Assembly: GCA_049297375.1 (NCBI GenBank)
Contig: JBAQUF010000046.1
Coordinates: 1 to 45,830, forward strand
DNA length: 45,830 nucleotides
Direction of reading: 5' to 3'
Source of the DNA: Patescibacteria group bacterium
GTDB taxonomy: Bacteria > Patescibacteriota > WWE3 > UBA101185 > UBA10185
The notes under the pieces were generated by a model that saw nothing but the letters and a program-made list of their open reading frames with translations, did not search any database and had not been told where the DNA came from. A program made the position numbers and the translations under genes. How positions within the stretch are numbered: the stretch's first letter is position 1; the number at the start of each line of letters is the position of its first letter. This document shows positions 387-19,439 of this stretch, piece after piece.

Positions 387-2456
387 TTACGAATTCAACT
401 GCCTTTCTACAGCAAACCATCGCTCTATGCCGTTGTTACTGTCCATCCTTGCTAAACCTAGTTCCTTTAGTGTTGTCAAAGCTGCGTTAATTATTTCCTT
501 GTCGGAATTATTGTTTAAAGCTCTATGTATCTCTGTTTTAGTCATTCCATTGGGATTGCCTTTTAAAGCACTCAAGACGCGTGTTGTTAGTGAATCTAAT
601 GCTTTTGTTTGGAAGATATATTTGGCAGAGTTTTCTGCATAGTCCCAAACAGCGAGTGCTGCCAATAGGTGAGCAGGTTGTATGAATTTAGATTTATCCA
701 GGAGAGCGTAAATACCTGCAACTCTTGTTACATATGACTCAGCTCGTGAAGTCATGGCACCCAACATGCCTGGTTTACCCTCTGAGAGTTCTGGATATAT
801 GCTTTTCCACAAAGGTTTAGCTTCTTCACTCCATTGAATTTCATCCACAGTACTAGAAAAATTAACTGCGTCTTTAATCTTTAGCGTTAGTCTTTTAATT
901 TCTATGTCAGGTATATATCCACCGAATGCTAGGTAACTGGATCTGCTAACACAGACCCAAAGAAATCTATTACCAAAGCCGTTAAACGTTTCTGTTTCGT
1001 TCAATAATTTTCGCAATTCCTCTCTAGTTATGTGCCCCATAATAGTAATGTGTGCTCCGGTAGCTCTAGCGGGGAAGTTCTTGGAGAGCGTGCATAAGTT
1101 ACCTGTATCCCACGCATCCCTGATTATTGCGGATAATGTATTATCTTTTCTTGCTGAAACCTTTAATACCGATGCAAATTCAGTTTCCATAACGAAAAGT
1201 CTTTTATCTTTTACTCCCTCGTCACTAATGACATCCTGGTAACCCTCTATGGGACCTCTTTTTCCCTTTTGTATTGGTTCGGATTTTGTAACCGCATCTC
1301 GTACATTCCAAATCAAGCCTTCGCCAGAAACTAGTCCTGAGGATATTCTGTAACTCCAAAGTAGATCTATCTCGCTAAAAATCTTCTTTGGATAACCCCA
1401 ACTATCTCCTTTTCTACCTTTTGCTGTTTTTCCAACCAGCACACAAAAAAGTCTCATTGGGTGATAGATCGCTCCTATTTTTATATGAGGTTTTGGTCCT
1501 ATAACAGAACCAAAGGCACACAAAAAATTAAAGAGTAGTGCAGAACTATCTGCCTCTGTTTGAGGTCCTACAGTTTTTACAAAATCTCCAGCAAGACCAA
1601 TAAAAGCCTCCTCAGCAATAGGTGATGGCCAGGGTACATTGCACATTGTTTCGTTATTGAGTGTTTTTTCCTTAAGAATAAATTCTTTTGCAGAATTGAA
1701 AATAGCGTCTACCTCTGTATCGTCCAAGGGAGGTATAAAAGTTTGATTTATACTTACAATTACCAATTTGGCACTTATTAAATCGTAATTTCTGGATAAT
1801 AGTGAGCAGGAAACCCTGTGGAGTGTATCGTTTCTGGTTCCCTCTTTTGCTCCTAGAGCATCTGCAATATCAAAAGGTGGTACATCGGTGCCTGTCGTAT
1901 AATTCTCAGTATGGTCTGTTTCAAGATTGGGAAAACAAGGAAGATTTCTTAACAATTCTTTTGGATCTCCGTTTATAAGCCACTCGTATGATAGTCCATC
2001 AAAAGCTGACGGAGGTATTACGACAAAACCACCATCTCCGCGAACATCTAGGGTTTTACCGCCAACCTTAACTGTGTTGCGGACACCTTCTGCATAGGCG
2101 TAATAACTGTGATAACCACCCGTGATAGTTTTTACCATAACGGGCGACTTGTAGGGGGAATCAGTCTCATCCCAATCTAAAACCGTAACCCCAGATATTT
2201 TTCCGGTAATCAAACCAATTGCATTTACACTTGGGTTTGAGAAACCTGTCTCCAGTTCACTATCTGTTGGCAATTTGTTTTGCAGTTCTCTCCAAGTGGA
2301 GATAGCTGGTTTTTTATCAACTTTCCTGACTTCCTTTCCTCCTATTATCTTTGTTTCATACTCACCGTTTTTATCTAGTTTGTAACTAAGGATTACGGGC
2401 ATAACAGATAATCCGTACGAATTTTTATATATCTTTGCTGTAGATAATAAATTCAT
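387..2456 (-). CDS. bifunctional DNA primase/polymerase (Prim-Pol N-terminal domain) with a DUF3987-like C-terminal helicase-like domain
   Basis: 689 aa. N-terminus has VLDWDETD (DxD), GGYHSYY and DVRGDGGFVVIPPS, typical of the Prim-Pol family. The long C-terminal part resembles phage/plasmid primase P4-type or DUF3987 modules. Confidence 0.85.
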   Translation of the reverse strand: MNLLSTAKIYKNSYGLSVMPVILSYKLDKNGEYETKIIGGKEVRKVDKKPAISTWRELQNKLPTDSELETGFSNPSVNAIGLITGKISGVTVLDWDETDSPYKSPVMVKTITGGYHSYYAYAEGVRNTVKVGGKTLDVRGDGGFVVIPPSAFDGLSYEWLINGDPKELLRNLPCFPNLETDHTENYTTGTDVPPFDIADALGAKEGTRNDTLHRVSCSLLSRNYDLISAKLVIVSINQTFIPPLDDTEVDAIFNSAKEFILKEKTLNNETMCNVPWPSPIAEEAFIGLAGDFVKTVGPQTEADSSALLFNFLCAFGSVIGPKPHIKIGAIYHPMRLFCVLVGKTAKGRKGDSWGYPKKIFSEIDLLWSYRISSGLVSGEGLIWNVRDAVTKSEPIQKGKRGPIEGYQDVISDEGVKDKRLFVMETEFASVLKVSARKDNTLSAIIRDAWDTGNLCTLSKNFPARATGAHITIMGHITREELRKLLNETETFNGFGNRFLWVCVSRSSYLAFGGYIPDIEIKRLTLKIKDAVNFSSTVDEIQWSEEAKPLWKSIYPELSEGKPGMLGAMTSRAESYVTRVAGIYALLDKSKFIQPAHLLAALAVWDYAENSAKYIFQTKALDSLTTRVLSALKGNPNGMTKTEIHRALNNNSDKEIINAALTTLKELGLARMDSNNGIERWFAVERQLNS

Positions 2457-3306: not shown

Positions 3307-3540
3307 TTAAATGAAAAGTTCGTGCATTTGGACTTTTAGTGCTTTGGCTATCTTTGCAATAGTTTCTGTTGAGGGATTGCGTTCTCCTCGTTCAATATAC
3401 CCAATGTAAGCTCTATTTAATCCTGCACTTAGAGCTAAATCTTCTTGGGTTATACTTTTTTCTTCCCTATACTTCCTAATTTTTTCGCCTATTTTTTTAG
3501 ACTGACTTGTAACTTTAACCACACATATAGTTTCAGGCAA
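3307..3540 (-). CDS. XRE-family helix-turn-helix transcriptional regulator
   Basis: ITQEDLALSAGLNRAYIGYIERGERNPSTETIAKIAKAL is a classic HTH_3/XRE motif. The start is uncertain: TTG at 3540 or GTG near 3522. Confidence 0.85.
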   Translation of the reverse strand: MPETICVVKVTSQSKKIGEKIRKYREEKSITQEDLALSAGLNRAYIGYIERGERNPSTETIAKIAKALKVQMHELFI

Positions 3541-3575: not shown

Positions 3576-3764
3576 ATGATTATGGATAAAAACTTGCGAA
3601 ACGGAATAATAATAGGGATAGCAGTTAGTGCCTTATCCGTTTTCTATTACTTTGTCGTAAGACCCATTCATAATAGTAATGAGTTGGGTAAATGCCTGGA
3701 AAGAGCCGAAAAACAAACTTATTACAAACAAAATTATAGGGACAATTGCTTTAAACAATTCTAA
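3576..3764 (+). CDS. small membrane protein (hypothetical)
   Basis: 62 aa with one hydrophobic helix (GIIIGIAVSALSVFYYFVV). Divergent from the XRE gene and first in a tightly packed plus-strand gene string. Confidence 0.4.
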   Translation: MIMDKNLRNGIIIGIAVSALSVFYYFVVRPIHNSNELGKCLERAEKQTYYKQNYRDNCFKQF

Positions 3765-3766
3765 CT

Positions 3767-4057
3767 ATGAGTAATAACCCAGAGGACACTTCCATTGAAG
3801 AAAAAGTCACCAAGCAATATCAAGCAAGAATAGATTTCATAAGTAAAAGTGATAAACCAGAGGAGCAGAAAGACAAAGAAATAGTCACACTTATGGTGAA
3901 TTGTACTTTTGACCCGAGACTACCCGCAGTATCGTACACATCAAGAAGCCAAGCCGAAAAGTCATTAAAAGTGCAGGAAATACTGGAGTCACTTAGTGAC
4001 GAAGAATTTTTAACAGACTCGTATGTATTGAATTGGCACGATTTACTTAATTCTTAA
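3767..4057 (+). CDS. hypothetical protein
   Basis: 96 aa ORF starting 2 nt after the previous stop. No recognised motif. Confidence 0.45.
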   Translation: MSNNPEDTSIEEKVTKQYQARIDFISKSDKPEEQKDKEIVTLMVNCTFDPRLPAVSYTSRSQAEKSLKVQEILESLSDEEFLTDSYVLNWHDLLNS

Positions 4058-4080
4058 GTGATATTAAGGAGGTAATTATT

Positions 4081-4302
4081 ATGAAAGTATTTCCTACGGG
4101 AAAAGATGCAGCCCTATATAAACAGTTAATAATCGGGAGTGTAATGATTGGTGTTGGTAAAGTTTTAAATGATCTTTATCCATCAGCATCTTTTATATTT
4201 GGATTCATGTGCATTGTTGGAGGAGTGATTTATTTATTAAGTAAAGTATTTGGAAAAAAGAAAACGGTTTTACATAAAGACAACCAAACTATCCTAAAAT
4301 GA
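4081..4302 (+). CDS. small membrane protein (hypothetical)
   Basis: 73 aa with two hydrophobic segments. AGGAGG lies 10 nt upstream. Its TGA stop overlaps the next ATG (ATGA). Confidence 0.5.
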   Translation: MKVFPTGKDAALYKQLIIGSVMIGVGKVLNDLYPSASFIFGFMCIVGGVIYLLSKVFGKKKTVLHKDNQTILK

Positions 4303-5243
4303 CCAATACATTGTTAGATAGATTTAAAGGCTGCTTGATCGGCTTAGCTGTAGGCGACTACTTAGGCTTGCCTATAGAGTTTTGTAAGGCATCCCAGGTT
4401 AAGAACTTCTATCCAAATGGGTTAGAGCCTAGAGCATGCACTAGGGGCAATTCCAGCTATCCGGCAGGTTTTTACACAGATGATACCGCTTTAACAATTT
4501 GTTTAGCGGAATCACTTATTGAAAATGGGTTTGATGTTAAGGATCAATTTCTGCGATATAAGAAGTGGCTAATGGAGGGCTACGCAACGCCGTTTAACGA
4601 CAACGCATATGGTGTGGGTCAAAACACTCTAAGGCAATTACTTACTGCAGATCCGGATAATCTTCCAACAGAGATGAAGAATAACGAGAAACAAGGTGGA
4701 AACGGTGCCTTGATGAAATGCTCTCCGATTGGATTAAGATACTACAAAGATGAAAAAGAGTTGGTGGAAAAGACAATTGCCTCCACAATAATTACACATA
4801 CCAATGAGATCGCTGTTTGGTGCTGTATCGCACATAACCTTTTCATTAGTTATTCCTTGTATGGATATGCTAAAGAAACATTTATTGAAAGGTTCCTATC
4901 CACTTATCAGAATTGCCATGCAAAGCTCCAGGAAGTCTTACAGATGGACTTTAGTACCGTGGACGAGCATTCACTTAGTACATCCGGATATTCGTTAAAT
5001 ACTTTCATTATTTCACTCTATTGCTTCGTAAAAACGGATAACTACAAAGATTGCATAACAAAGGCTATTTTCTTAGGTGGCGATGCGGATACGCAGGGAG
5101 CTGTTGCAGGATCGCTTGCAGGTTGTTACTACGGATATTCAAAGATTCCTAAATCTTTCTTAGTACACCTAATGAAAAAAAGCTATGTTACATCTCTCTC
5201 AGCAAATCTTTGTTCCAGAACCAAGAAAGAACAAGTTAGCTAA
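4299..5243 (+). CDS. ADP-ribosylglycohydrolase family protein (DraG/ARH-like)
   Basis: 314 aa with family signatures: LLDRFKGCLIGLAVGDYLGLPIEF at the N-terminus, FYTDDTALT, and GGDADTQGAVAGSLAGCYYG near the C-terminus. Confidence 0.85.
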   Translation: MTNTLLDRFKGCLIGLAVGDYLGLPIEFCKASQVKNFYPNGLEPRACTRGNSSYPAGFYTDDTALTICLAESLIENGFDVKDQFLRYKKWLMEGYATPFNDNAYGVGQNTLRQLLTADPDNLPTEMKNNEKQGGNGALMKCSPIGLRYYKDEKELVEKTIASTIITHTNEIAVWCCIAHNLFISYSLYGYAKETFIERFLSTYQNCHAKLQEVLQMDFSTVDEHSLSTSGYSLNTFIISLYCFVKTDNYKDCITKAIFLGGDADTQGAVAGSLAGCYYGYSKIPKSFLVHLMKKSYVTSLSANLCSRTKKEQVS

Positions 5244-5526
5244 TAGATTTACCTAAAAGAAACTCAATCAGCCTTATACACGCGTAGGTATAATCATATA
5301 AAATGCTGCCTTTAACTATCAGCTCGGGTCTCCACAATGCTAAACACACTAAGGATATTGAAAATACCAGCCATAGTATTGCTCCTATGGAGAACAAAGC
5401 TATTAGCAACCTATTATTATTCTCAGTTGAAGAAGTTTTTATATTTAGTTTATTTTTATAACCACCTTGTACAGAGTTACCGTCACCAGTTACATTTGTA
5501 GAGAAGTTACTATCTGTTATTTTCAT
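5236..5526 (-). CDS. small membrane protein with N-terminal STNVTGDGNSVQGG motif
   Basis: 96 aa with one strong TM helix (LLIALFSIGAILWLVFSISLVCLALW). Overlaps the upstream 241 aa gene by 17 nt. Shares a motif with that protein's C-terminus. Confidence 0.5.
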   Translation of the reverse strand: MKITDSNFSTNVTGDGNSVQGGYKNKLNIKTSSTENNNRLLIALFSIGAILWLVFSISLVCLALWRPELIVKGSILYDYTYACIRLIEFLLGKSIS

Positions 5527-6235
5527 TATCTAATCCTCCTTGTACTTTATTTCCATTACCTGGAACATTAGTACTTAAATCAATATAATTCTGTGCTACT
5601 ACCTGTTTATCAATTTTGACCTGAACCAAAGTTACACTATCAGAAACCTTTGTCTCATCAAGACTTTCTGACATATGTTGTAATAATTTTACTCCCCTAA
5701 AGACTACTGTTCCAAAATCAGTTAATCTGATTTGGTATCTTCCAAGTAATTTGTTTTCTACCCATCCGGTTGGAGGGTCTACTATCCCAAGATCCACCAA
5801 GAAAAACAGGTAATTATAATTAGCTTGAATCTGTTCTTTACTACCGTCTATTGTAAGTCCATTGCATAATGTCGTGTCCTCTAAAAAATTGAAATCAGTG
5901 GAGCAACCTGCATGTAGTTTTTCATGTAAGATATTGGAGAGATCGGGATTATTACTTTGATAAAGTGTAAGATAAAGTATTCCGCCATCTGCAAGGAAAT
6001 AGTCTTTAGTAAAAAAGTTATGTGAAATTCCAAAAGTCTCCAAATGTTTGAAATAGTCAGGTAGGTATATTTTCTGATCACAAACCTTAATATAATTTAG
6101 AAATTTAAAAAATCTTGGAAATTGTTCTGAGTTTGAATACTCTTCCGCCATCCACCCATTTCTCCCTATGAGACTTTGCAAGGTCTTTGAGTCTTCCAGA
6201 TTACTTTGAGTAAGATATATTACCTCTTTACTCAT
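5510..6235 (-). CDS. hypothetical protein (C-terminal STNVPGNGNKVQGG motif)
   Basis: 241 aa. Start overlaps the stop of the 990 aa gene by 8 nt, so the two look translationally coupled. No recognised domain. Confidence 0.55.
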   Translation of the reverse strand: MSKEVIYLTQSNLEDSKTLQSLIGRNGWMAEEYSNSEQFPRFFKFLNYIKVCDQKIYLPDYFKHLETFGISHNFFTKDYFLADGGILYLTLYQSNNPDLSNILHEKLHAGCSTDFNFLEDTTLCNGLTIDGSKEQIQANYNYLFFLVDLGIVDPPTGWVENKLLGRYQIRLTDFGTVVFRGVKLLQHMSESLDETKVSDSVTLVQVKIDKQVVAQNYIDLSTNVPGNGNKVQGGLDNENNR

Positions 6236-9200
6236 TTTGTACCGCCTTTTCTATAGTTAAGGCACCGAACTTGTCTGATAGTCTCACATACACACGCTCA
6301 AATTCGTACCAAAACCATTTAAGTTTTGGATTTTTTTTAATAAGTCTTTTAATATGTCTCTCTGCGGAAAAGTAATAATTAAAATCATATTCTGAAGATA
6401 CCCGTTCCACATACTTTGTATAAATTCTCCAAACATAAGTTATATAATTTAAATTTCCCGAATTATCACTGCCTATGGCAAAATCAAGAAGATCCTGAAA
6501 CCTCTTATAGTATTCGGGACTTAAATCATATAGAGGGTTTGCAAGAGCTGTTTCGGTTAACTCTTCTTCAAAATCCGATACTTCATGAGCAATAAGTGGC
6601 TCTGGGGCTATATATGCTTTAGCTTCAACAACTTTATTTCTCAATTTTTGAAAACGCCATTTAATAGCCTGTGGATCGTTGTAGATTTTAATAAGGCTGG
6701 TGTTCGCAATATCTTTAGCAAATGGAAATTCCATATTTTTAAAAACATCTTGAAAGTATCCTTTACCAACAACTTTAATTGCTCTGTCCAATTCACTTAA
6801 ATTTTCTAATGCCTGTCTTTTGCTGTACTCCTCAATGTCCTTATCCTCTACAAAGGATTTTAGTATTGGAATTGCACCTTGTAGGTAGTTGCCTTTTTCA
6901 TTTTCCAGAGAAATAAAATGGGTAAAACTCCCTGGAATTAAATATCTGGCATCATTGTCTTTATCGGAGTACACACCATAAACAAAAGTTAGTTCACTTT
7001 CTTTTATATCCGTTACAATTTCTAAAATCGTCATGAGATCCTCAGTGAACGCAAAAACTAAAAAGTCTATAAATTTTTGGCGATATTCTGGTAATTTTTC
7101 TGGAAACAACTTCAATCCTAACCTCATAATTGCACCAAAATAGAAATGGACCGAACTTATTGTGTATGGTCCGGATTTACTTTCCGTATTTTGATATTTA
7201 ACTTTGAATTTTTTAGGATCAATCAGGTCAAGGTTACTTTCAATTGCGAGTTTCATTAACCTTTCTGTGTCTTCAGGCTGAATTACATCTTTAAGGTCGG
7301 ACTCGTTCCTTAGATAATAATCAAATACTTCAGGTTGATATTTTCCTTGACCTGGTTCAAGTAACCTCTTAAATTCCTCATATTTTTTAGTTTTGTTGCT
7401 CTCAAAAGGACTATTAGTAACTTGTGGAACAACCTTTGCAGGCTCCAGAAGAGAGTCCTTTATGGCTTTTTCATATAGAGAAATATCGTTGACCCTCCAT
7501 CTATAGTTCCTTAGAATCATTTCAAACACATGTTGCCCATCCTTAGGCAGTTTTAATATCTCATCATGTATACCTTTCAAGTTATTTTCACTCACTAACC
7601 AAACTAAAATTTCCTCATATGTGTCCCAAACCGCCCAAACATTCTCATCCTTTCCCATATTATTTTTTGCTGCCTTAATAAGTTCTTTCCAAAAGTCAGG
7701 GTCTGCTTCGGCAATCATCAGTGTTATTGATTCTATTAAGTACGATTTTTCAATATGGTAAACATTTCTTAGCTTTGCAATAGCAAATACTACCTGCTTA
7801 AGTAATGTAAGAGTGGGGGTAGCATCTGTTTGTAACGTTTTTTTTATGTTTTCAATGAGTCGTTGGTCACCTTTTTCATCCTCCCCATTGAAGATTGATT
7901 CTTTGTCAATTAACCGCTTTAAAAAATTTGTATCCTTTGAGGATTTTTCTAATAAATACTTGATCGCTTCAGGGGATGTGATTTCATAAAGTCCATGACG
8001 GGCATAAATATCCATACCTTGTTTTATGGCTTCTATGAGGTAATCTATCGTTTTAAAACTATTTGGTGCTGAATCATAACAAAATTGAATAAAGGCTTCT
8101 CTAACTAAGGAGTCCTTATTTATAAAATTTACGGAAAGCTCTTCAACCAGAACTGCATCCTTATAAAAGGTTAATGCTGATAAACAGTGTCGCTGTAAAA
8201 CTCCATTACCATCTTGGGATTTTGCATACTCAACCATTCTTGTTTTCCAGAAAGTCTTTTCTGCATTACTAAGTAAATCTGGTTGCTCTTCCAGTATATT
8301 TCCGATTATTGATATTACATTGCCTCTATTAGTGTATGTTTTTTCTGGCGTGTCTTGTTCTTCAATATCTTTTTTCAAGGATGTAAGTGCTGTTTTTGTA
8401 GCAATTTTACCTAAACCGGTTCTTGCCCAAACGGGAAACCAGATTCCTTTGGATCCATAGGTTTTATACACTAACTTGAATACTTTCAGTTTCGTTTCCT
8501 CTGACTCTAAAGGAACATTTGTAAGGTATTCAGCCAAGTCCTCAGTAAGAGACCTCTGATGTTTCTGCAAAAATTCTACACACCAACTCGTTATTGTATT
8601 TCGTTTGTTGCTTAAGAAGAGGAAGTATAATACTCCAAACCAGGATTGTTTAAGCATCGGAATACCTTTTTGCTTGAAAACAGCATATTTCTCATAATCT
8701 TCTATAATGCTTGAAGAACCTAATAACTTTTCGGCTACTAAGAACTCAGAAAGTCGGTGATGTTTCCAACCCACATATTTCTTTTTAGTTTTGTCATCGG
8801 TTAAAATTTCCATTAACCCTTTATCCGTCAAATATGCTTTCGTGAAGGGATATTTTTTATTTAGTAATATACTGTCAAATATGCTTTCTTCTATCTGATT
8901 GGCATGGATCAATTCATATATAAAGGCAAGTGGTATCAACTCTTTGAAGTTATTTCCATACAGTTTTTGAAACAAATAGGTATAAAAAACGGGTAGCTTA
9001 AATTCTAAATAATTTGTTTGTTCAAGGTATTCAATAAATATATCTAGATATGGTTTGTAGGATATAAGGCTGTTATACACATCCTTAAACCAAAAAGCTC
9101 TAAGTATCTCATTACTGAGGCTTTCTGAGACCCCCTTTTCTAAAAGGATACTTCTAATTTCCGAATTATCTAAATAATTTTCTTTCGTAAAAATTCCCAT
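6228..9200 (-). CDS. large all-alpha/helical-repeat protein with a STAND (NACHT-type) winged-helix-like signature but no P-loop NTPase domain
   Basis: 990 aa uninterrupted ORF. Residues ~125-160 (DKGLMEIL...YVGWKHHRLSEFLVAEKLL) resemble the GLL...F-x-H-x-S-F-Q-E-[FY]-L-A-A motif that follows NACHT NTPase domains. The rest looks like HEAT/TPR-type helical repeats. There is no proper Walker A. Confidence 0.55.
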   Translation of the reverse strand: MGIFTKENYLDNSEIRSILLEKGVSESLSNEILRAFWFKDVYNSLISYKPYLDIFIEYLEQTNYLEFKLPVFYTYLFQKLYGNNFKELIPLAFIYELIHANQIEESIFDSILLNKKYPFTKAYLTDKGLMEILTDDKTKKKYVGWKHHRLSEFLVAEKLLGSSSIIEDYEKYAVFKQKGIPMLKQSWFGVLYFLFLSNKRNTITSWCVEFLQKHQRSLTEDLAEYLTNVPLESEETKLKVFKLVYKTYGSKGIWFPVWARTGLGKIATKTALTSLKKDIEEQDTPEKTYTNRGNVISIIGNILEEQPDLLSNAEKTFWKTRMVEYAKSQDGNGVLQRHCLSALTFYKDAVLVEELSVNFINKDSLVREAFIQFCYDSAPNSFKTIDYLIEAIKQGMDIYARHGLYEITSPEAIKYLLEKSSKDTNFLKRLIDKESIFNGEDEKGDQRLIENIKKTLQTDATPTLTLLKQVVFAIAKLRNVYHIEKSYLIESITLMIAEADPDFWKELIKAAKNNMGKDENVWAVWDTYEEILVWLVSENNLKGIHDEILKLPKDGQHVFEMILRNYRWRVNDISLYEKAIKDSLLEPAKVVPQVTNSPFESNKTKKYEEFKRLLEPGQGKYQPEVFDYYLRNESDLKDVIQPEDTERLMKLAIESNLDLIDPKKFKVKYQNTESKSGPYTISSVHFYFGAIMRLGLKLFPEKLPEYRQKFIDFLVFAFTEDLMTILEIVTDIKESELTFVYGVYSDKDNDARYLIPGSFTHFISLENEKGNYLQGAIPILKSFVEDKDIEEYSKRQALENLSELDRAIKVVGKGYFQDVFKNMEFPFAKDIANTSLIKIYNDPQAIKWRFQKLRNKVVEAKAYIAPEPLIAHEVSDFEEELTETALANPLYDLSPEYYKRFQDLLDFAIGSDNSGNLNYITYVWRIYTKYVERVSSEYDFNYYFSAERHIKRLIKKNPKLKWFWYEFERVYVRLSDKFGALTIEKAVQNE

Positions 9201-9354
9201 TTTTTCCTGACTTTAACTTGATGCTACAAGGATATTATACTAGCATTGACACGAGTTTACTAAGTGTGTCCTTGTAACAAGAGCCTTTATTGTAAACTGA
9301 GCATCCCCAAATGCATGGAAATCAGTTAAAATAGACTTATAAAGGTATATAAAT

Positions 9355-10821
9355 ATGTTTGAACAAGCTTTAAAAAATATAGATGATGCACTGCATAGAG
9401 ATGCCGGTTCTGCAACGGAACTGGATTACATAGAACAGACTTCCTGGATTCTGTTTCTTAAATACTTGAATGACCTCGAAAAAGATAAAGATACTGAGGC
9501 GAAGTTAGCAAATAGAAACTATCAACATATTCTTGATCCGAAGTATCGTTGGGACACATGGGCATGTCCTAGAAACCCAGACGGTACGATAAATCATAAC
9601 AAAGCCCTATCGGGTGACGATCTAAAAGATTTCGTAGATGGCGAGCTGTTTCCATATCTTAAAAAATTTAAATACTCCGCAGAAAACGCTGACACAATTG
9701 AGTATAAGGTAGGAGAAATCTTTAGCGAGTTGAAAAACAAAATCCAAACCGGTTACACACTACGAAGTATTTTGGATATTGTGGATAGTTTAGAGTTTAG
9801 AACTGACGCAGAAAAGCACGAGCTTTCCCATTTGTATGAAAGCAAACTGCAGAATATGGGTAATGCTGGTAGAAATGGTGGGGAGTATTACACGCCAAGA
9901 GCTTTAATTCGCACAGTAATTAAGGTTGTAGATCCAAAAATAGGGCAAACAATTTACGACGGTGCCTTAGGATCAGCTGGATTTCTAGTAGAATCCTTTA
10001 ATTATCTTACACAAGAAAAAGAAAAACTTTCACCTAAAGATTGGGAAACGCTTCAAAAGAAAACGTTTTATGGTAAGGAAATTAAATCTCTCGCATACAT
10101 TATTGGTGTAATGAACATGATTCTGCATGGAATTGAAGCTCCAAACATTATTCATACAAATACTCTAGCTCAAAATATCTCTGACATCCAGGAAAAGGAT
10201 CGTTACGACATTGTTCTTACAAACCCACCTTTTGGTGCTGGTATTAGAAAAGAAATTCAACAAAACTTTCCTATTAAAACAGGTGAAACAGCCTATCTAT
10301 TTTTACAGCATTTTATAAAAATTCTTAAAGCCGGTGGTAAGGCGGGTTTAGTTATTAAGAATACATTTCTTTCAAACACCGACAATGCGTCTGTATCATT
10401 AAGGAAACACTTACTTGAGACATGCAACCTCCATACAGTTCTTGATTTACCTGGTGGTGTATTTACCGGAGCTGGCGTTAAAACGGTAATTCTATTTTTT
10501 GATAAAGGTGTTTCTACTAAAAAAATATGGTTTTATCAATTAAATTTGGATAGAAACCTAGGGAAAACTAATTCTTTAAATGAAAAAGATCTAAATGATT
10601 TTGTAGAGTTACAAAAGACAAAAGCTGCTACTAAGAACTCTTGGTCAATAGATATTAAGGATATTAACCAAAAAACCTTTGATCTGTCTGTAAAAAATCC
10701 TAATGTTGAGGAAGCTGTAGCCTTGCGGGAACCTCTGGACATAATCAATTCTATTAGAGATCTTGATAAACAGAGTAATGAAATTTTGAATATACTATAC
10801 GAAAGAATCAATGAAAAGTAA
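9355..10821 (+). CDS. hsdM: type I restriction-modification system, DNA methyltransferase subunit M
   Basis: 488 aa with the HsdM N-terminal domain (LHRDAG...EQTSWILFLKYL), AdoMet motif IYDGALGSAGFLV and catalytic VLTNPPFG. Confidence 0.95.
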   Translation: MFEQALKNIDDALHRDAGSATELDYIEQTSWILFLKYLNDLEKDKDTEAKLANRNYQHILDPKYRWDTWACPRNPDGTINHNKALSGDDLKDFVDGELFPYLKKFKYSAENADTIEYKVGEIFSELKNKIQTGYTLRSILDIVDSLEFRTDAEKHELSHLYESKLQNMGNAGRNGGEYYTPRALIRTVIKVVDPKIGQTIYDGALGSAGFLVESFNYLTQEKEKLSPKDWETLQKKTFYGKEIKSLAYIIGVMNMILHGIEAPNIIHTNTLAQNISDIQEKDRYDIVLTNPPFGAGIRKEIQQNFPIKTGETAYLFLQHFIKILKAGGKAGLVIKNTFLSNTDNASVSLRKHLLETCNLHTVLDLPGGVFTGAGVKTVILFFDKGVSTKKIWFYQLNLDRNLGKTNSLNEKDLNDFVELQKTKAATKNSWSIDIKDINQKTFDLSVKNPNVEEAVALREPLDIINSIRDLDKQSNEILNILYERINEK

Positions 10822-12001
10822 TTGGGAAATAAAAAAGCTTTCCGATGTATGTACAATAGTAAATGGCGGTACACCAGACACTGCAGTAAAACGATATTGG
10901 GGAGATCCACTTTTATGGATTACACCCAAGGACATGGGAAAATCAGAGCAAATCTTTGTGGATGATACTGCAAGAAAAATAACTATGGAGGGTCTAAAGA
11001 ATTCTTCCGCCAAATTATTACCAGTAAATTCCGTTATATTATCTTCACGGGCACCAATAGGTCATCTTGCGATCAACACCAAAGAAATTGCTACAAATCA
11101 AGGATGCAAAGGGCTGGTTCCACATAAGGAGCTTGATACTTTTTATCTTTATTACTTTTTGAAAAATTCAGTAGGGTTGTTGAATGAGTTGGGTAGTGGC
11201 ACTACTTTTAAAGAACTTTCTGGTACTAAATTATCTACTGTAGAAATTCCTTTACCAGATAGAGCAGAACAACTGAGAATTGTTACAAAAGTTGGAGAGA
11301 TTTTTGAAAATGCTGACAAGGAAAAAAGAATCGCAGAAATAAATTTAGAAAACATAAAAGAACTTTACCGCAATTACTCACAAACTGTATTTGAGCATAC
11401 CGGTGACAATTGGGAAACTAAGAGATTAAAAGAAGTGTGTGAAAAAATTACAGACGGGACACATCAGACCCCGAGTTATTATGAGAACGGTTATATTTTT
11501 CTCTCATCTAGAAACGTAACCAGTGGCAAAGTAAATTGGGATAATGTTAAATATATTGATGAAAAGCAACATACCGAAATGCACAAACGAGTTTCACCAA
11601 GGATCGGAGATATATTACTAGCCAAAAACGGCACTACAGGTGTAGGAGCTCTTGTAGATAGAGATGTTAGCTTTGATATATACGTAAGTCTTGCCCTACT
11701 AAGAGTTACAAATGATATAACTCCAGAATATCTTTTGTATTTTGTAAATTCTCCCTTTGCAAAAAAGCAATTTAATAAAAGACTAAAAGGTTCGGGAGTA
11801 CCGAATCTTCATTTACAAGAAATAAAAGAGGTCGTAATTTCTTTTCCTAAGTCAAAGCAAGAACAAAATACCACTGTTTTAAGATTAAAGGGGTTTTTAG
11901 AACAAAAACAAAGTCTAGAGAGGATTTATCAACAAAAGATACAACATTTAGAAGAACTTAAAAAATCAGTACTTAATAAAGCCTTTATTGGAGAGCTATA
12001 A
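10811..12001 (+). CDS. hsdS: type I restriction-modification system, specificity subunit S
   Basis: 396 aa with two target-recognition halves (each W..K.L.dv........G.TP) separated by conserved coiled-coil spacers. Overlaps hsdM by 11 nt. Confidence 0.9.
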   Translation: MKSNWEIKKLSDVCTIVNGGTPDTAVKRYWGDPLLWITPKDMGKSEQIFVDDTARKITMEGLKNSSAKLLPVNSVILSSRAPIGHLAINTKEIATNQGCKGLVPHKELDTFYLYYFLKNSVGLLNELGSGTTFKELSGTKLSTVEIPLPDRAEQLRIVTKVGEIFENADKEKRIAEINLENIKELYRNYSQTVFEHTGDNWETKRLKEVCEKITDGTHQTPSYYENGYIFLSSRNVTSGKVNWDNVKYIDEKQHTEMHKRVSPRIGDILLAKNGTTGVGALVDRDVSFDIYVSLALLRVTNDITPEYLLYFVNSPFAKKQFNKRLKGSGVPNLHLQEIKEVVISFPKSKQEQNTTVLRLKGFLEQKQSLERIYQQKIQHLEELKKSVLNKAFIGEL

Positions 12002-12008
12002 TAAATAT

Positions 12009-14318
12009 ATGAATGAAGCCGAAACAAGAGCCGAATACATTGATCCAAAACTTGTTGAAAGTGGCTGGGGAGTAGTAGAAGACTCCAGGATACTAAGAGA
12101 ATACAGGTTTACAGATGGTAGAATTCAGGTTGGTGGCACAAGAGCAAAGCCGGAAATTGCAGACTACATACTGCAATATAAAAATATAAAACTTGCCGTA
12201 ATTGAGGCAAAACAGTTAGATTTACCTCCAACTGAGGGTGTTACCCAAGCTAAAATATACGCACATAAACTTTGTATTGATTACACCTATTCCACTAACG
12301 GTAAAAGAATCTATCAAGTATGTATGAAAACGGGTAAGGAGGAGTATATAGATAAGTATCCGACTCCGGAAGAACTATGGAATGCAACATTTTCTGATCA
12401 GAATGATTGGAAAGAAAAGTTCAACGGCGTTCCCTTTGAAAATGTTAACGGTACTAAAAGTCTTCGCTATTACCAGGAAATTGCAGTTAATAGAACAATG
12501 GATTCAATCGCTGAGAACAAACAGAGAATTCTTTTAACATTAGCTACTGGTACTGGTAAAACTTTTATCGCTTTTCAAATAGCTTGGAAGTTATTTAAAA
12601 CACGATGGAATTTAAAAAGAGATGGTGCAAGACAACCAAGAATCCTATTCCTAGCAGATAGAAACATATTAGCTGACCAGGCATATAACGCTTTTTCTGC
12701 ATTCCAAGAAGACGCCTTAATTCGTATATCACCTTTAGATATTAGAAAAAAGGGCACAGTACCGACAAATGGGAGTGTGTTTTTCACTATTTTCCAAACA
12801 TTTATGAGTGGTCCTAATAACACCCCGTACTATGGTGACTATCCCAAGGATTTCTTTGACTTTATTATTATTGATGAATGTCACCGTGGTGGTGCAAATG
12901 ATGAGAGTAACTGGCGAGATATTATGGAATACTTTTCTCCCGCAGTTCAGTTAGGCTTAACGGCAACTCCAAAGAGGAAAGATAATGTGGATACTTACAG
13001 ATATTTCGGAGAAACTGTATACACCTACTCACTTAAAGAGGGAATTCAGGATGGTTTTTTAACCCCATTTAAAGTAAAAAGGGTAAAGACTACCATGGAT
13101 GATTATGTTTATACGGCTGACGATGATGTTGTTGAGGGTGAAGTTGAGCAAGGAAAAGTATATGTAGAATCTGATTTCAACAGAATTATTGAAATAATGG
13201 AGCGTGAAAAAAAGAGAGTCGCTGTCTTGTTAGACGAAATAGACCAGAAAGATAAAACAATTGTATTTTGTGCTTCCCAGGCTCACGCACTTGCAATCAG
13301 AGATCTAATCAACCAGATGAAAGATAGTAAAGATCCTAACTATTGTGTTCGTGTAACAGCAAATGACGGTTTGAGAGGTGAACAGTATCTTAGGGAATTC
13401 CAGGACAACGAAAAAACTATACCAACAATACTTACTACTTCACAGAAACTATCCACTGGCGTTGATGCTAGAAATATACGAAACATAGTCCTTATGAGAC
13501 CTATCAACTCAATGATTGAGTTTAAACAGATTGTAGGGCGTGGTACGAGGTTATTTGAGGGTAAAGAGTACTTCACTATAGTTGATTTTGTTGATGCCTC
13601 TCAAAAGTTTTCTGATACAGAGTGGGATGGGGAACCTATTGATGAGTATATTCCACCTGAAAATAAAACACCTAAAGTGCATGATGGTCCTACAGATATT
13701 ATCTATGAACCTACTCCAACGGAACCTAAAGAACCGAAAAAAATGGTTAGAATAAAACTTAGAGATGGTAAGGAAAGAAAAATCCAACACATGGTTTCAA
13801 CTTCATTTTGGAGTTCTGACGGAAAGCCTATCTCATCCGAGGAATTCATAAAGAGCATCTATGGTAAATTACCGGACTTTTTTAAAGACGAGCGGGAGTT
13901 AAGAAAAATATGGTCCAGTCCTGATACAAGAAAAGCGTTTCTAAATAAGTTAGCTGAAAACGGTTACGGTGTGGACGAGCTTACTTCTCTACAGAAATTA
14001 GTGGACGCAGAAAACAGCGATTTATTTGATGTGCTTTCCTACATATCATTTGCAATTGAACCATTGGAGAGATTGGAAAGAGCAAATAATAGTAAACCTG
14101 TTGCTTTTAAGAATTTGGATATAGACCAAAAGGAATTTTTGGAATTTGTACTTTCAAAGTATGTTGAAAATGGATTTGAAGAGCTTGATGAAGAGAAGTT
14201 ACCTGTGTTACTAAATCTCAAATACCAAGCAATCGCAGATGCAGTGAAAATACTTGGCGGTGTTGAGAGAATAAGAGACACATTCCTTGGATTCCAAAAG
14301 TGCCTTTACTCTGTCTAA
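12009..14318 (+). CDS. hsdR: type I restriction enzyme, endonuclease/helicase subunit R
   Basis: MNEAETRAEYIDPKL is the canonical HsdR N-terminus, so the ATG at 12009 is preferred over the track's TTG at 11988. SF2 motifs LATGTGKT and IIIDECHRG are present. The C-terminus resembles the EcoEI R C-terminal domain. Confidence 0.95.
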   Translation: MNEAETRAEYIDPKLVESGWGVVEDSRILREYRFTDGRIQVGGTRAKPEIADYILQYKNIKLAVIEAKQLDLPPTEGVTQAKIYAHKLCIDYTYSTNGKRIYQVCMKTGKEEYIDKYPTPEELWNATFSDQNDWKEKFNGVPFENVNGTKSLRYYQEIAVNRTMDSIAENKQRILLTLATGTGKTFIAFQIAWKLFKTRWNLKRDGARQPRILFLADRNILADQAYNAFSAFQEDALIRISPLDIRKKGTVPTNGSVFFTIFQTFMSGPNNTPYYGDYPKDFFDFIIIDECHRGGANDESNWRDIMEYFSPAVQLGLTATPKRKDNVDTYRYFGETVYTYSLKEGIQDGFLTPFKVKRVKTTMDDYVYTADDDVVEGEVEQGKVYVESDFNRIIEIMEREKKRVAVLLDEIDQKDKTIVFCASQAHALAIRDLINQMKDSKDPNYCVRVTANDGLRGEQYLREFQDNEKTIPTILTTSQKLSTGVDARNIRNIVLMRPINSMIEFKQIVGRGTRLFEGKEYFTIVDFVDASQKFSDTEWDGEPIDEYIPPENKTPKVHDGPTDIIYEPTPTEPKEPKKMVRIKLRDGKERKIQHMVSTSFWSSDGKPISSEEFIKSIYGKLPDFFKDERELRKIWSSPDTRKAFLNKLAENGYGVDELTSLQKLVDAENSDLFDVLSYISFAIEPLERLERANNSKPVAFKNLDIDQKEFLEFVLSKYVENGFEELDEEKLPVLLNLKYQAIADAVKILGGVERIRDTFLGFQKCLYSV

Positions 14319-14324
14319 CTAGCT

Positions 14325-15405
14325 GTGACAAAATATCTAAAAGATAAACAATACTATTACGATGACTACGATCGTTCCACTATTGAAGAATGTAAGGCTC
14401 ATTTAGAAAGACTTGCAGGTAACCCTAATCCCAAAAAGGAATTAACAGAGGATCAAAAAACTATTCTGAAGTGGCTATCCGTATGGGCAGAATTACACAT
14501 CTATTTTATTAAGGGCGAAAGGTATAAAAATAGAGAGAGTGCCGTAGAGGAACAGTTCCGCAGTGACGCCAGAAAAGATAATACTTTGGAACGAGTGTCT
14601 ATTCCGTTGGGAATTAAGTGTAAGGACTGTAATACAAGAATGGAATTTACTCAAAAAGATTTAGATGTGTATGACGAAACCAAAGTTCTTATTATGTTTA
14701 ATTGTCCGAAATGTGGTAAAGGGAGGGCATTTTATAACAATGGAGAAGAGTGGAAAATACAAACCACCAAATTGTTCAAAGTGTGGTTCTCAATATAATT
14801 TCTCAAACAGCAGAATCAAAAACAAGATAATTACAACTTTTACATGTCCTAAATGCAGTAACAAGGAAGAAATGGTATTAGATCTGGATGAAAAGTATGT
14901 ACCGGCTCCTGTTGAGCCAATAACTGAGGAGGACAAGCAAAAATACTTAATGAGTTCTGTAGAGGGTAACGCTTACATTGATAGTTGTTATAAACTCACT
15001 GATGCAACGGACGCTCTTAAAGACGAGCAGGAAAGGGAAGAACATAAGGAGTTGTACGACAAGGTTGCTAAGATTAGTCGCCTGAAAATTGCAGACGTTG
15101 AAAAGCTGTTGATTGATGTGGCAACTAAGAACGATTACGCCAAGTTTCAGTTTGGCAAACCTGATATTGGTAGGTACTTTATTGTTGAGTTTAATGCTGA
15201 GGATATAAAACCCAGCCGTGAGGAATATGATTCAAAACATAATTTACAAAAGGTTTGCGAAAAAGCACTTAAAGATACTAACTGGAGGGTTATGAGCGAT
15301 GGTGTTAGTTACAGAGCCGGATATTTAACCGGTAGGGTAAGGTGCTACGAAAAAGAAGAAGATATTTTGGAACTTATAAAACATGCAAAAAATAGGCAGA
15401 AATGA
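14325..15405 (+). pseudogene. zinc-ribbon-repeat protein gene split by a frameshift at an A4 run (two track ORFs, 14325..14798 and 14665..15405)
   Basis: GTG start lies 6 nt after the hsdR stop. ORF1 carries CKDC...CPKC and ORF2 carries CSKC...CPKC. Removing one A from AAAA (14754-14757) joins ...FYNNGEEWK to YKPPNCSKCGSQYNF... in a single frame. Confidence 0.6.
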
Positions 15406-16288
15406 TCCGTGCCCTTGTGGCAGTAATAGTAAGTATAAACATTGTCACGAGGGAAAACTTTTCACTTTTAAAGCAGAAAGATTTAACATAGCTGCAAAAA
15501 AAGACGGTAAAACATTTAAATTATTCAACATCGCTTTTAATCAAAACCGAAATGGTCAGGCTAGTATTATAGTATCCTTTCCCTATTTGAAAGAATCACA
15601 AGGTCTATTATCTGTAGCAACATTTCCGAAAAATTTAACAAGAATTGAGCAACTTAGTCTGGAACCTGGAGGTAAAGTAACATCTCATAAAATTAAATAT
15701 AGTCATTGGATGGATGGAAATGTTCATTTTTCTCAGGATGGAAAGATATACACTCTTAAAAAAGATCCCTCAGACTCTCTGGTAAATGGTGTAGGTCACC
15801 TCTTTACCATACATATTAAAGATATTACTGGATTTGAGGAAAAAGTTGACGCTAAAGAGTTCACATCTAAAATAATTGATCTAGATGTGGAAATGATAGA
15901 TAAGGATAAAGACACTGTAAAATTCACAGCATGGTGGTATAAGGAAACTGTTATACATCCTCCTAGAGCAGAATTTTCAAGGATTTATAACTTTAAACAA
16001 GAAGAGGGAGTAATCAGTAAGGGTTTTGCTTTACAAGCACCAGATTGTTCGCCATTAACTGAATCAATACTTTTACTTTGTGCTAGACAAGAACATTTAA
16101 CCGAAGATCCTGGATCACATATCTTATTCTTAGGGGGTTTTGATAAAAGAGAGATTTTTAAAGATTTAAGTAAAGACTTTAAATTTTTGGCAATGATGTA
16201 CCCTGCCATGGACTATGAGGATTTAAAAACACGATTAGGGAGTGTTGATCTTAATAGCTCAGATATAGCTCCACAACTATCACTATAA
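15383..16288 (+). CDS. SEC-C metal-binding motif protein (function unknown)
   Basis: 301 aa. N-terminal GRNDPCPCGSNSKYKHCH is a SEC-C motif. The rest is unrecognised. Overlaps the preceding gene by 23 nt and is the last gene of the hsd operon string. Confidence 0.7.
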   Translation: MQKIGRNDPCPCGSNSKYKHCHEGKLFTFKAERFNIAAKKDGKTFKLFNIAFNQNRNGQASIIVSFPYLKESQGLLSVATFPKNLTRIEQLSLEPGGKVTSHKIKYSHWMDGNVHFSQDGKIYTLKKDPSDSLVNGVGHLFTIHIKDITGFEEKVDAKEFTSKIIDLDVEMIDKDKDTVKFTAWWYKETVIHPPRAEFSRIYNFKQEEGVISKGFALQAPDCSPLTESILLLCARQEHLTEDPGSHILFLGGFDKREIFKDLSKDFKFLAMMYPAMDYEDLKTRLGSVDLNSSDIAPQLSL

Positions 16289-16395
16289 AATGTTACTTCA
16301 AGCGCAAACTTGTAAAATACTTTGAAACATCACCAAAACATCAACCAATTGGTTTAGATTAGCCTCCACTACCGACCCCAAAGCACCTTAATATT

Positions 16396-16662: not shown

Positions 16663-16735
16663 AATAAGTTACTCTATGGTAGCGGATATAATATTAGATA
16701 ATATAGCCGCTACCTTAAGAAAATTTGGATTACAT

Positions 16736-16966: not shown

Positions 16967-17076
16967 CAAACTCTCACCTCCTATTGCCTTAGGCTTAAGA
17001 TATAAGTAGATTATAACACCGTTGTAAAATTAACTTTTTGCAAGTAGCATAAAGGAGTAAGTCATTTTTATAAAAT

Positions 17077-18378: not shown

Positions 18379-18384
18379 ATAATA

Positions 18385-19386: not shown

Positions 19387-19439
19387 AACCGACAACATAC
19401 TTGTCCGCAAATATAAATCCTGATATACTGCATCTCGTC

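Follow-up and report, generated by a model that had tools for sequence, protein, structure and literature searches.

Organization of the locus

The window, that is, the whole stretch of 45,830 nucleotides analysed here, originates from a tiny-genome bacterium of the candidate phyla radiation (Patescibacteria-type). Three genes on its minus strand encode proteins of 990, 241 and 96 amino acid residues. The product of the large gene (6228..9200) is an NTPase-less, NLR/STAND-derived protein and a proposed sensor or scaffold, the middle gene (5510..6235) encodes a proposed adaptor, and the small gene (5236..5526) a predicted single-pass membrane protein that may act as effector or anchor. The large and middle genes overlap by 8 nt (6228-6235) and the middle and small genes by 17 nt (5510-5526), and the trio is separated by 154 bp from hsdM (start 9355), the first gene of a divergent type I R-M operon in which the identities of hsdM, hsdS and hsdR are backed by Pfam or ORF content. 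The ORF coordinates hence agree with an initial annotation that had described three translationally coupled minus-strand genes diverging from hsdM. The intergenic region (9201..9354) is a putative promoter region: a perfect -10 box TATAAT was read from the sequence at 9239-9234 on the minus strand, and AGGA at 9208-9205 precedes the ATG of the large gene at 9200. The -10 box was not listed by a consensus promoter scan because its -35 element is weak; it probably serves as the promoter of the large gene. Genes for a Prim-Pol and an XRE protein lie near the trio.

The large gene is accessory, being present in one of 41 related genomes. Among the 51 loci considered, R-M methyltransferases are located next to about eight, in one case (L001) translationally coupled to the partner gene, and 11 loci have an XRE gene in the vicinity. 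The accessory, defence-island setting proposed at first is consistent with this distribution. Serine recombinase genes stand beside the module in loci L003 and L089. In L003, a homolog of the Zn-ribbon gene of the window (14325-15405) directly adjoins the large gene, which makes it quite possible that the R-M cassette has inserted between the two in the window. The family was not found in the phage, plasmid and IMG/VR collections searched.

The large protein and its NACHT-bearing relatives

The 990 aa protein had no match in Pfam (neither AAA nor NACHT), NCBIfam, PADLOC or the PDB sequences, in keeping with the earlier remark that the trio corresponds to no named system. With phmmer, 236 detectable relatives were recovered, which form an unnamed family. 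They include NACHT-bearing proteins matched at E ~1e-74 and below, among them P0061 (E 3e-74; Pfam NACHT E 1.8e-9, Walker A GEPGSGKT, Walker B LDGLDE) and dozens more. These full-length, P-loop-carrying homologs, for which a search had been suggested, constitute a sister clade of proteins of 1330-1430 aa with a real NACHT NTPase followed by the winged-helix motif FxNxEFQEYLA. The alignment of the window clade to them starts just after their NBD (MAFFT, hhalign), and the N-terminal 215 aa (query residues 8-215) aligned with the NACHT clade in hhalign at 99.8% and E 1e-27. Judged from these alignments, the 990 aa protein is homologous to bona fide NACHT proteins, significantly and over its full length.

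No Walker A motif was detected in any protein of the short clade. All NTPase-less forms grouped in one clade with a support of 1.0, and the alignment start is identical for each of their 51 representatives, whose N-terminus is conserved. A NACHT domain supplied in trans was found neither in the genome (above cut-off) nor within 5 kb of the short-form genes. As shown by the tree and the sequence alignments, the NTPase-less clade is either a descendant or a sister of NACHT-WH-HEAT STAND proteins whose C-terminus carries a nuclease-like domain, and it has lost a P-loop core of about 180 residues while keeping the predicted helical domain, winged helix and HEAT-like solenoid. The initial proposal of an NTPase-less STAND derivative is thereby borne out, given that the P-loop relatives align from just after NACHT through the winged-helix motif. 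Against the defence models of PADLOC, family members and NACHT sisters gave only weak P-loop or HTH matches.

Residues 8-84 (8949..9179, minus strand) are helical and correspond by homology to the helical domain that follows the NBD in the NACHT clade; in MAFFT and hhalign, its KPYL pairs with PRYL of that clade, and an FW motif at residues 36-37 is near-invariant. Residues 85-160 (8721..8948, minus strand) constitute a winged-helix module, assigned by its AlphaFold2 secondary structure (helix-strand-helix-helix-strand-strand, followed by the motif helix) and by its alignment with the winged helix of the NACHT clade (MAFFT, hhalign). The module ends in W145-x-H147-H148...E152-F-L, the counterpart of FxNxEFQEYLA, with W145, H147, H148 and E152 invariant in A1. 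The corresponding segment, WKHHRLSEFLVAEKLL, was located at residues 145-160 (nt 8721-8768), exactly where the initial annotation had placed it. From alignment and model, the protein is predicted to retain the post-NBD helical domain and a winged helix with a conserved His-containing motif. The long helical repeats that had been noticed downstream of this segment are present as well: residues ~185-990 (6231..8648, minus strand) are all-helical in the AlphaFold2 model (pLDDT 89.5 for the 990 aa protein), and their best Foldseek PDB matches were SF3B1, CAND1, importins and PR65 (E 4e-6 to 4e-4, with low TM-scores). Relatives of the protein gave weak HEAT_2 matches. The C-terminal, sensor-type repeat region is modelled as a HEAT/ARM-like alpha-solenoid and is the presumed ligand-binding part.

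Interchangeable output modules

Gene architecture was tabulated for 53 loci, in 52 of which the large ORF is complete. Wherever the sequence extends far enough downstream of a short form, a coupled gene for 195-300 aa follows at a distance of -41 to +4 nt. Forms of at least 1130 aa have no coupled gene, save spurious ORFs of up to 36 aa and an unclassified overlapping ORF of 210 aa in L047. This comparison shows that the outputs of the family are interchangeable, located either at the C-terminus or in the next translationally coupled gene; by calls that are sub-threshold or motif-only, they would be HEPN-like, TIR-like, PD-(D/E)xK-like, or a middle protein with a membrane anchor. The initial annotation had not mentioned such interchangeable effectors. 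Among the fused outputs, R-N-x-F-x-H is invariant in 13 HEPN-like domains. Five proteins matched TIR_2 (E 3e-5 to 1e-2) and carry DIFISHAS. Invariant in the standalone nuclease-like partner are a D and a K, and the residue two positions ahead of this K is E or D ((E/D)-x-K); its Mrr_cat matches were weak. All HEPN, TIR and nuclease calls are below the curated thresholds or rest on motifs alone, and PDB profile searches with these domains yielded no match. A SIR2 domain was not seen among the effectors.

The output of the window is split into the 241 aa middle protein and the 96 aa predicted single-pass membrane protein. This three-gene layout recurs in seven loci, which answers the earlier question of its conservation, and TM-fused middle proteins occur in L001, L017, L041 and L046. 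The nearest relatives of the window protein, L041 and L020, are TM-fused single-gene forms.

The middle and the small protein

No word-level homolog was found for the 241 aa protein, which belongs to a fast-evolving family. An iterative HMM linked it to the middle proteins of L041, L033, L017, L004 and L001, thereby joining split and TM-fused forms. Its AlphaFold2 model is poor (pLDDT 40). Given the translational coupling of their genes, the large and the middle protein may be in contact. The idea that the N-terminus of the partner corresponds to the linker of the fused forms failed its test.

The 96 aa protein, which had been called a membrane protein at first sight, contains one strong hydrophobic segment in Kyte-Doolittle window scans (~residues 39-66; 5329..5412, minus strand). 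Its counterparts across loci are proteins of 64-96 aa with an N-terminal motif and one predicted TM helix, and the small membrane protein had no Pfam match. Flanking charges favour an N-in topology in six of seven homologous loci; in the window, the TM flanks are balanced (2+/1- each), which places this protein outside the six clear N-in cases. The small gene is preceded by a perfect Shine-Dalgarno sequence, AAGGAGG (5535..5541, minus strand), 8 nt before its ATG and inside the Q-G-G codons of a motif in the tail of the middle protein. An SD-like sequence is present at this position in six of seven loci; four of these, namely the window, L033, L088 and L089, have a clear one of at least GGAGG. 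Between L004 and L055, pN/pS was 0.16 for the middle and 0.10 for the small gene.

A matching motif at the tail of the middle and the head of the small protein

The tail motif of the middle protein (residues 219-240, DLSTNVPGNGNKVQGGLDNENN; 5516..5581, minus strand) and the head motif of the small protein (residues 7-28, NFSTNVTGDGNSVQGGYKNKLN; 5443..5508, minus strand) were identified by local alignment. They form a 22-residue match with a local score of 67, which none of 20000 shuffles reached; 13 residues are identical, and just 5 of these use the same codon. Across the seven loci, the motif of about 20 residues differs between loci and matches within each: in a 7x7 matrix, within-locus scores were 57-82 in six loci and 30 in L088, and scores across loci were 17-35. 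The observed score was reached by no shuffle in the six strong loci and by 55 of 5000 shuffles for the weak pair of L088. In the seven loci together, 43 of 82 identical tail/head residues share the codon, a codon identity near chance; the synonymous sites of the two copies are near saturation at an amino-acid identity of 50-70%. The comparisons show a motif that is locus-specific and, as far as sequences tell, co-evolving. Tail and head copies are spaced by 73-97 nt, never by a multiple of 3. Both motifs abound in G, N, S, T and D, interspersed with hydrophobic residues in an alternating pattern, and they lie in segments that are unstructured in AlphaFold (pLDDT 25-28). In all seven loci, the motif scored at background against the large protein of its own locus. 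By analogy, the motif resembles the end-tags through which known microbial immune pairs relay death signals.

Comparison with known systems

The family has a homologous helical domain and winged helix, long C-terminal repeats and a winged-helix motif of the FxHxxFQEYLA type in common with NACHT/STAND antiviral sensors (Avs/AVAST, bNACHT; Kibby et al., bioRxiv 10.1101/2022.07.19.500537). Like Avs and bNACHT, it combines modular effectors (TIR, nuclease, HEPN, TM) with accessory, island-borne genes. In contrast to STAND proteins, the whole clade is devoid of the defining P-loop NTPase, and its effectors are C-terminal or encoded by the next gene, whereas those of Avs and bNACHT are N-terminal. 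In PADLOC, no Avs or bNACHT model was matched by this clade or by its NACHT sisters.

A precedent for a STAND-type repeat sensor joined to an effector without the STAND NTPase is Dsr1, which, like other NTPase-less defence proteins, has its sensor in common with Avs7 (bioRxiv 10.64898/2026.01.04.697583). The present family is unrelated to Dsr1 in sequence, without a match to the Dsr1/Dsr2 models of PADLOC and without a SIR2 effector; unlike Dsr1, it retains the post-NBD helical and winged-helix modules, and its effector is C-terminal or encoded by separate genes, in the window as a two-protein membrane module.

Proposed function

We consider the trio an accessory conflict module, most likely anti-phage, that is located on a Prim-Pol/XRE mobile island and consists of an NLR-derived protein and a membrane effector, and assign this reading a probability of roughly 60%. 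Most likely, it represents a conflict system of NLR ancestry, so far undescribed, that acts through a membrane effector. The accessory nature of the gene, its R-M neighbours and the immune-type effectors predicted from sequence would fit an anti-phage role. The solenoid would bind an invader- or stress-derived ligand without a nucleotide switch, and the middle protein would dock on the large one. Binding of the matching motifs to each other in the cytoplasm would couple the activated complex to the 96 aa membrane protein, which, once clustered, may damage the membrane and abort the infection. In all its testable parts, the analysis supports the main reading of the initial annotation, in which an NTPase-less STAND derivative cooperates with two small proteins, the last of them a membrane protein and possible effector.

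A possible, more specific version of the coupling step is a true amyloid-like templating pair as in HET-S/NWD2, the BASS pairs or Bab/Agp: activation would cluster the tails of the middle protein, whose cross-beta fold would template the heads of the membrane protein and thereby cause a lethal membrane lesion. As with the pairs by which BASS were discovered, two adjacent collinear genes encode, at the C- and the N-terminus of their products, a motif of at least 15 residues, and within-pair similarity is far above between-locus similarity in six of seven loci. The composition of the motifs and their unstructured prediction fit this version as well, and amyloid signalling from a repeat-protein sensor other than a canonical NLR is already known from the E. 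coli Abi system Bab/Agp (BASS11; bioRxiv 10.1101/2024.11.07.622273). The trio resembles Bab/Agp and the Bell/NLR BASS pairs (bioRxiv 10.1101/2020.01.06.895854) in its adjacent collinear genes, in the within-pair covariation of a short terminal motif and in a small membrane-directed output, and Bab/Agp also in that the upstream large repeat protein is not a canonical NLR. However, the large protein as the sensor carries no motif, unlike in every validated amyloid-signalling system; the copies are located on the tail of the middle protein and the head of the TM protein, whereas FASS/BASS pairs have a copy on the N-terminus of the NLR/TGP sensor. The topology is inverted too, since the motif is N-terminal to a simple, single TM helix instead of C-terminal to a Bell/HeLo/Hell-type or other recognised death domain. 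Moreover, a one-to-one beta-zipper tether predicts an identical sequence signature. We regard amyloid templating as a tentative, rather doubtful option. A further difference from Bab/Agp and the BASS pairs is the host, a unicellular ultra-small bacterium.

The duplicated motif could also be a gene-fission scar, left when the ancestral gene for a middle-TM fusion was split by a tandem duplication, about 73-97 nt long and out of frame; the copies would then have no role in interaction, or both would bind one site on a third partner, e.g. the large protein. The out-of-frame spacing of the copies and the existence of TM-fused single-gene forms, including the nearest relatives L041 and L020, agree with such a history, and part of the tail copy is under a separate constraint, the SD of the small gene being contained in its GG codons. 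Yet the SD accounts for just two or three residues of one copy, amino-acid identity persists although the synonymous sites are near saturation, both ORFs are open with low pN/pS, and a divergence to background between loci with a match within loci is not expected of a neutral scar, which makes this origin unlikely.

Alternatively, the module may serve the mobile island itself (addiction, competitor exclusion or regulation) or be a housekeeping scaffold, instead of acting in host defence, in line with the Prim-Pol and XRE genes beside it, with the serine recombinase genes in L003 and L089 and with the absence of the family from defence databases. The last variant conflicts with the gene missing from 40 of 41 relatives, hence not housekeeping. 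Swapped TIR-like, HEPN-like, nuclease-like and membrane outputs on one NACHT-sister scaffold are the architecture of an immune sensor, the family is absent from the mobile-element collections searched, and element-versus-element exclusion would still count as a conflict function; we thus hold a role outside host defence to be improbable.

Lastly, the initial alternative had the R-M cassette insert into the large gene and leave a 5'-truncated pseudogene. The cassette immediately upstream and the Zn-ribbon homolog directly beside the large gene in L003 had lent it some appeal, but it is refuted by the common start of 51 representatives from many samples and contexts and by their single clade. 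The ORF is moreover intact and has a promoter-like -10 box and an RBS to itself.

In short, the large protein of this tiny-genome bacterium derives from NLR-type immune sensors, or is sister to them, and does without their ATP-binding engine.

Gene organization and genomic context

The trio consists of three genes on the minus strand that encode proteins of 990 aa (large gene, 6228-9200), 241 aa (middle gene, 5510-6235) and 96 aa (small gene, 5236-5526). Neighbouring genes share 8 and 17 nt, and a gap of 154 bp lies between the trio and the divergent hsdM; ORFs, overlaps and gap were exactly as given in the initial annotation. The divergent region contains a perfect TATAAT (9239-9234, minus strand) and an AGGA ahead of the ATG of the large gene. 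A perfect Shine-Dalgarno sequence, AAGGAGG (5541-5535, minus strand), lies 8 nt ahead of the ATG of the small gene. None of the three proteins had a match in Pfam, NCBIfam, PADLOC or the PDB sequences, in agreement with the earlier view that the trio corresponds to no named system.

The window is a complete 45.8 kb contig from a genome of 0.79 Mb (94% complete), a size typical of Patescibacteria/CPR. The trio is located in an accessory island (positions 1-16.3 kb) that runs off the left end of the contig. The island encodes a Prim-Pol protein (387-2456), an XRE protein (3307-3540), an ADP-ribosylglycohydrolase gene string (3576-5243) and, after the trio, the type I R-M system (9355-14318), a Zn-ribbon gene and a SEC-C gene; the housekeeping genes hisS, prfB and ychF follow. 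No tRNA was found in the window. The large gene was present in one of 41 related genomes. The ADP-ribosylglycohydrolase gene (4299-5243, plus strand; Pfam E 2.7e-67) converges with the small gene, their 3' ends overlapping by 8 nt (5236-5243); such a gene adjoined trio homologues in none of 51 loci.

Descent of the 990 aa protein

A word-indexed search with the 990 aa protein retrieved 12 relatives of 28-35% identity, the N-terminus being common to all, and an exhaustive phmmer search retrieved 236 relatives in two groups. Members of the short group (~950-1200 aa) have no P-loop. Members of the long group (1330-1430 aa), which align from residue ~280 onward to the query from residue ~90 onward, possess a genuine NACHT domain (in the member P0061, PF05729 with E 1.8e-9, Walker A GEPGSGKT and Walker B LDGLDE), followed by the canonical FENPEFQEYLAS motif. 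Their C-terminus is a D...D...E.K domain consistent with PD-(D/E)xK, and some carry an additional N-terminal MerR or XRE HTH. Full-length homologues with a P-loop, which the initial annotation had proposed to look for, thus exist.

Both MAFFT and profile-profile comparison mapped the start of the short group to the very end of the nucleotide-binding domain (NBD). With hhalign (99.8%, E 1e-27), query residues 8-215 aligned to residues 183-433 of P0061, in which the Pfam NACHT match covers residues 51-196. The short group therefore retains the helical segment (query KPYL aligned to long-group PRYL), the winged helix and everything downstream, and lacks only the P-loop core of ~180 residues. In the AlphaFold2 model of the 990 aa protein (pLDDT 89.5, pTM 0.76), residues 85-160 follow the secondary-structure order of a winged helix and then form the motif helix (WKHHRLSEFLVAEKLL, residues 145-160). 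Residues ~185-990 form an alpha-solenoid. Its best PDB matches were HEAT/ARM proteins; TM-scores were low, as is to be expected when solenoids are flexible.

In a maximum-likelihood tree built from the shared region, 51 NBD-less representatives (support 1.0) were separate from 56 NACHT-bearing ones, and the NBD-less clade comprises at least 51 clusters at 50% identity. Provision of a NACHT domain in trans was rejected: no such domain scored above the cut-off elsewhere in the genome, and none was encoded within 5 kb of the short-form genes at any locus. The clade, together with the lack of NACHT in trans, supports the earlier proposal of an NTPase-less STAND derivative and refutes its alternative, a large gene truncated by insertion of the R-M cassette. 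The family is a relative of NACHT STAND sensors by homology, and is not filed as a STAND NTPase because the defining NTPase feature is missing.

Two winged-helix histidines, H147 and H148 (8759-8764), are invariant or nearly so, though the clade lacks the nucleotide-binding domain. Winged-helix histidines in NLRs contact the bound nucleotide. Five NACHT-bearing sisters (P0061, P0066, P0068, P0071 and P0078) share the architecture [MerR/XRE HTH]-NACHT-WH-HEAT-solenoid-C-terminal D..ExK domain; since none matched an Avs or bNACHT model in PADLOC, they may be a STAND defence family not yet described, with the effector at the C-terminus.

Interchangeable outputs

In the tabulated loci, short large proteins (~990-1010 aa) with enough downstream sequence were each followed by a tightly coupled gene for 195-300 aa (gap -41 to +4 nt). 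Proteins of at least 1130 aa each had a fused C-terminal domain and no coupled gene; the exceptions were spurious ORFs of at most 36 aa and an unclassified overlapping ORF of 210 aa in locus L047. Five output classes were distinguished. The first is a fused, putatively HEPN-like domain of ~140 aa with an invariant R-N-x-F-x-H (Rx4H pattern) and no database match. The second, TIR-like, is either fused (1167-1208 aa) or standalone (194-218 aa) and contains DIFISHAS; its Pfam TIR_2 matches (E 3e-5 to 1e-2, five of five tested) were below threshold. A standalone, putatively PD-(D/E)xK-like protein of 223-235 aa has an invariant D and an invariant K, the second residue before K being E or D (Mrr_cat E 0.03-0.1). 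The remaining classes are the middle protein with a small transmembrane (TM) protein, encoded by two genes, and the middle protein fused to a C-terminal TM helix, encoded by one (loci L001, L017, L041 and L046). The names HEPN-like and nuclease-like reflect motifs, and the profiles of the two corresponding alignments (A4 and A5, respectively) gave no meaningful match against PDB sequences. The split nuclease partner and the C-terminus of the NACHT clade were aligned by hhalign with a probability of 23%.

The output classes are interspersed on the tree, and outputs have therefore been swapped repeatedly. A swapped-output architecture and an accessory or island context are marks of immune sensors, which by architecture and association suggests such a role here. 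Neither the short clade nor the NACHT clade matched a named PADLOC system.

Five of 29 partners (loci L002, L027, L031, L033 and L037) begin, within their first 15 codons, with MST[IV]S..ISAKxxI, a start that the other 24 lack. These five span three unrelated classes (nuclease-like, TIR-like and middle protein), and the segment may be a common docking peptide kept through effector swaps. A correspondence of the partner N-terminus to the linker of the fused forms was rejected (HMM, all E > 0.5).

A matched tail and head in the middle and small proteins

The 241 aa protein is fast-evolving. A word-indexed search with it retrieved no homologues, and an iterative HMM related it to middle proteins from six further loci, in both split and TM-fused forms. 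Its AlphaFold2 model had a pLDDT of 40; by impression, a putative winged-helix pattern, Y..FL..LGI...Y..T..G, can be recognized.

The final ~22 residues of the 241 aa protein, DLSTNVPGNGNKVQGGLDNENN, have a match in NFSTNVTGDGNSVQGGYKNKLN, residues 7-28 of the 96 aa protein. The three-gene arrangement, whose conservation had been in question, was found in seven loci, each with such a tail/head pair and each with a different sequence. Local scores within a locus were 57-82 in six loci and 30 in locus L088, against 17-35 across loci, and in the six strong loci none of 5000-20000 shuffles scored as high as the actual pair. Codons agree at only 43 of the 82 identical residues; it is therefore the protein sequence that is kept similar, and a recent DNA repeat is not the cause. 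Between the closely related loci L004 and L055, which differ by few changes, pN/pS was 0.16 for the middle and 0.10 for the small gene. The flank N-terminal to the TM helix is the more positive one in six of seven small proteins, so a cytoplasmic head is predicted; in the 96 aa protein of the window the flanks are balanced and the rule leaves the topology undecided. The motif was also sought on the large protein and is absent from it.

Two forms of coupling between tail and head agree equally well with these sequences. One is a constitutive beta-zipper tether, the other a triggered amyloid-like templating step as in the Bab/Agp and BASS pairs; we consider the templating form rather unlikely. 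It is also plausible that the pair arose as a fission scar by out-of-frame tandem duplication; the copies are 73-97 nt apart, never by a multiple of 3. This origin does not account for the persistent match of the two copies within each locus despite their divergence from one locus to the next. It is unlikely that a programmed frameshift joins the 241 and 96 aa ORFs: the small gene is equipped with a strong Shine-Dalgarno sequence and an ATG of its own, the two frames are related by +1 in six loci but by +2 in one, and no slippery site was seen.

A Shine-Dalgarno-like sequence precedes the small gene in six of seven loci and is clear (at least GGAGG) in the window and in loci L033, L088 and L089. 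In at least four loci the Gly-Gly codons that end the tail motif double as this Shine-Dalgarno (GGAGG; window 5535-5541), which places one short sequence under both coding and translational constraint.

Distribution and mobility

About 70 loci were gathered, of which 53 were tabulated, 52 with a complete large ORF. Loci on genome contigs were found with a pattern from alignment A1, alignment A2 being too divergent for pattern design; a first scan of these contigs with a single protein gave no match. Phage, plasmid and IMG/VR collections contained no relatives. The family is concentrated in Patescibacteria/CPR genomes. Five of 13 genome-collection loci (L013, L014, L017, L022 and L025) stem from MAGs labelled 'uncultured Gammaproteobacteria' with 33-40% G+C, like CPR loci; the labels may be wrong, or the family may reach beyond CPR.

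R-M methyltransferase genes adjoin ~8 of 51 loci. In locus L001 (6765-14387), the TM-fused partner gene overlaps by 4 nt with a complete type I R-M operon downstream (hsdM, hsdS, hsdR), so that sensor, membrane effector and R-M system apparently share a single operon. Behind hsdR in the window, the Zn-ribbon gene (14325-15405) is split into two overlapping ORFs of 157 and 246 aa. Its homologue in locus L003 is one intact ORF of 360 aa that directly adjoins the large gene and diverges from it, and the R-M cassette of the window may hence have been inserted between the two. Genes for a serine recombinase or Prim-Pol occur within a few kb of the module in loci L003 (8921-10579), L089 (8785-10329), L004 (425-2266) and L087 (1-1526), as does Prim-Pol in the window (387-2456). 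Small integrative elements of a type that recurs in CPR genomes seem to carry the module.

Proposed mechanism and relation to known systems

The large protein descends from NACHT STAND proteins, has lost the NBD and is combined with swappable outputs, here a cytoplasmic and a membrane protein with a co-evolving tail/head pair. Its solenoid would sense a cue derived from the invader, with no nucleotide switch involved. The 241 aa protein may ride on the large protein, as their translational coupling, the sole evidence, suggests. Tail and head would bind each other and pass activation to the membrane protein, the clustering of which might damage the membrane. We assign a probability of about 0.22 to the full reading, in which an NTPase-less NLR relic controls an amyloid-like relay in an ultra-small unicellular CPR bacterium, the executioner being a minimal membrane protein of 96 residues and a single helix, whose N-terminal head is templated by the C-terminal tail of a soluble adaptor.

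Dsr1, which lacks an NTPase and reuses the Avs7 sensor, is a conceptual parallel to the 990 aa protein. The present family is different in that it keeps the helical and winged-helix modules and has C-terminal or split outputs. The tail/head pair shows the features by which amyloid-signalling pairs are discovered, as read from sequences. However, two features of their layout, a motif on the sensor and a Bell/HeLo effector, are missing in the trio. The Bell/HeLo arrangement is the inverse of the adaptor-tail to effector-head layout found here, which has not been described before for such pairs. The family has no name, and current databases of defence systems do not include it.

The NTPase is regarded as the on/off switch and oligomerisation engine on which NLR/STAND immune sensors depend. 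A whole diversified clade without it, still equipped with the winged helix, including the nucleotide-contacting histidine, and with a full set of immune-type effectors, amounts to a natural test of what the remaining NLR scaffold can do by itself. The tail/head pair is a small system, open to experiment, in which co-evolving end-tags would link a protein of the cytoplasm to an executioner in the membrane. The defence repertoire of CPR bacteria is poorly known. If the relay reading is true, prion-like signalling would not be confined to multicellular bacteria and prophages of E. coli but would include the smallest cells known, and sensing of the NLR type could do without a nucleotide switch.
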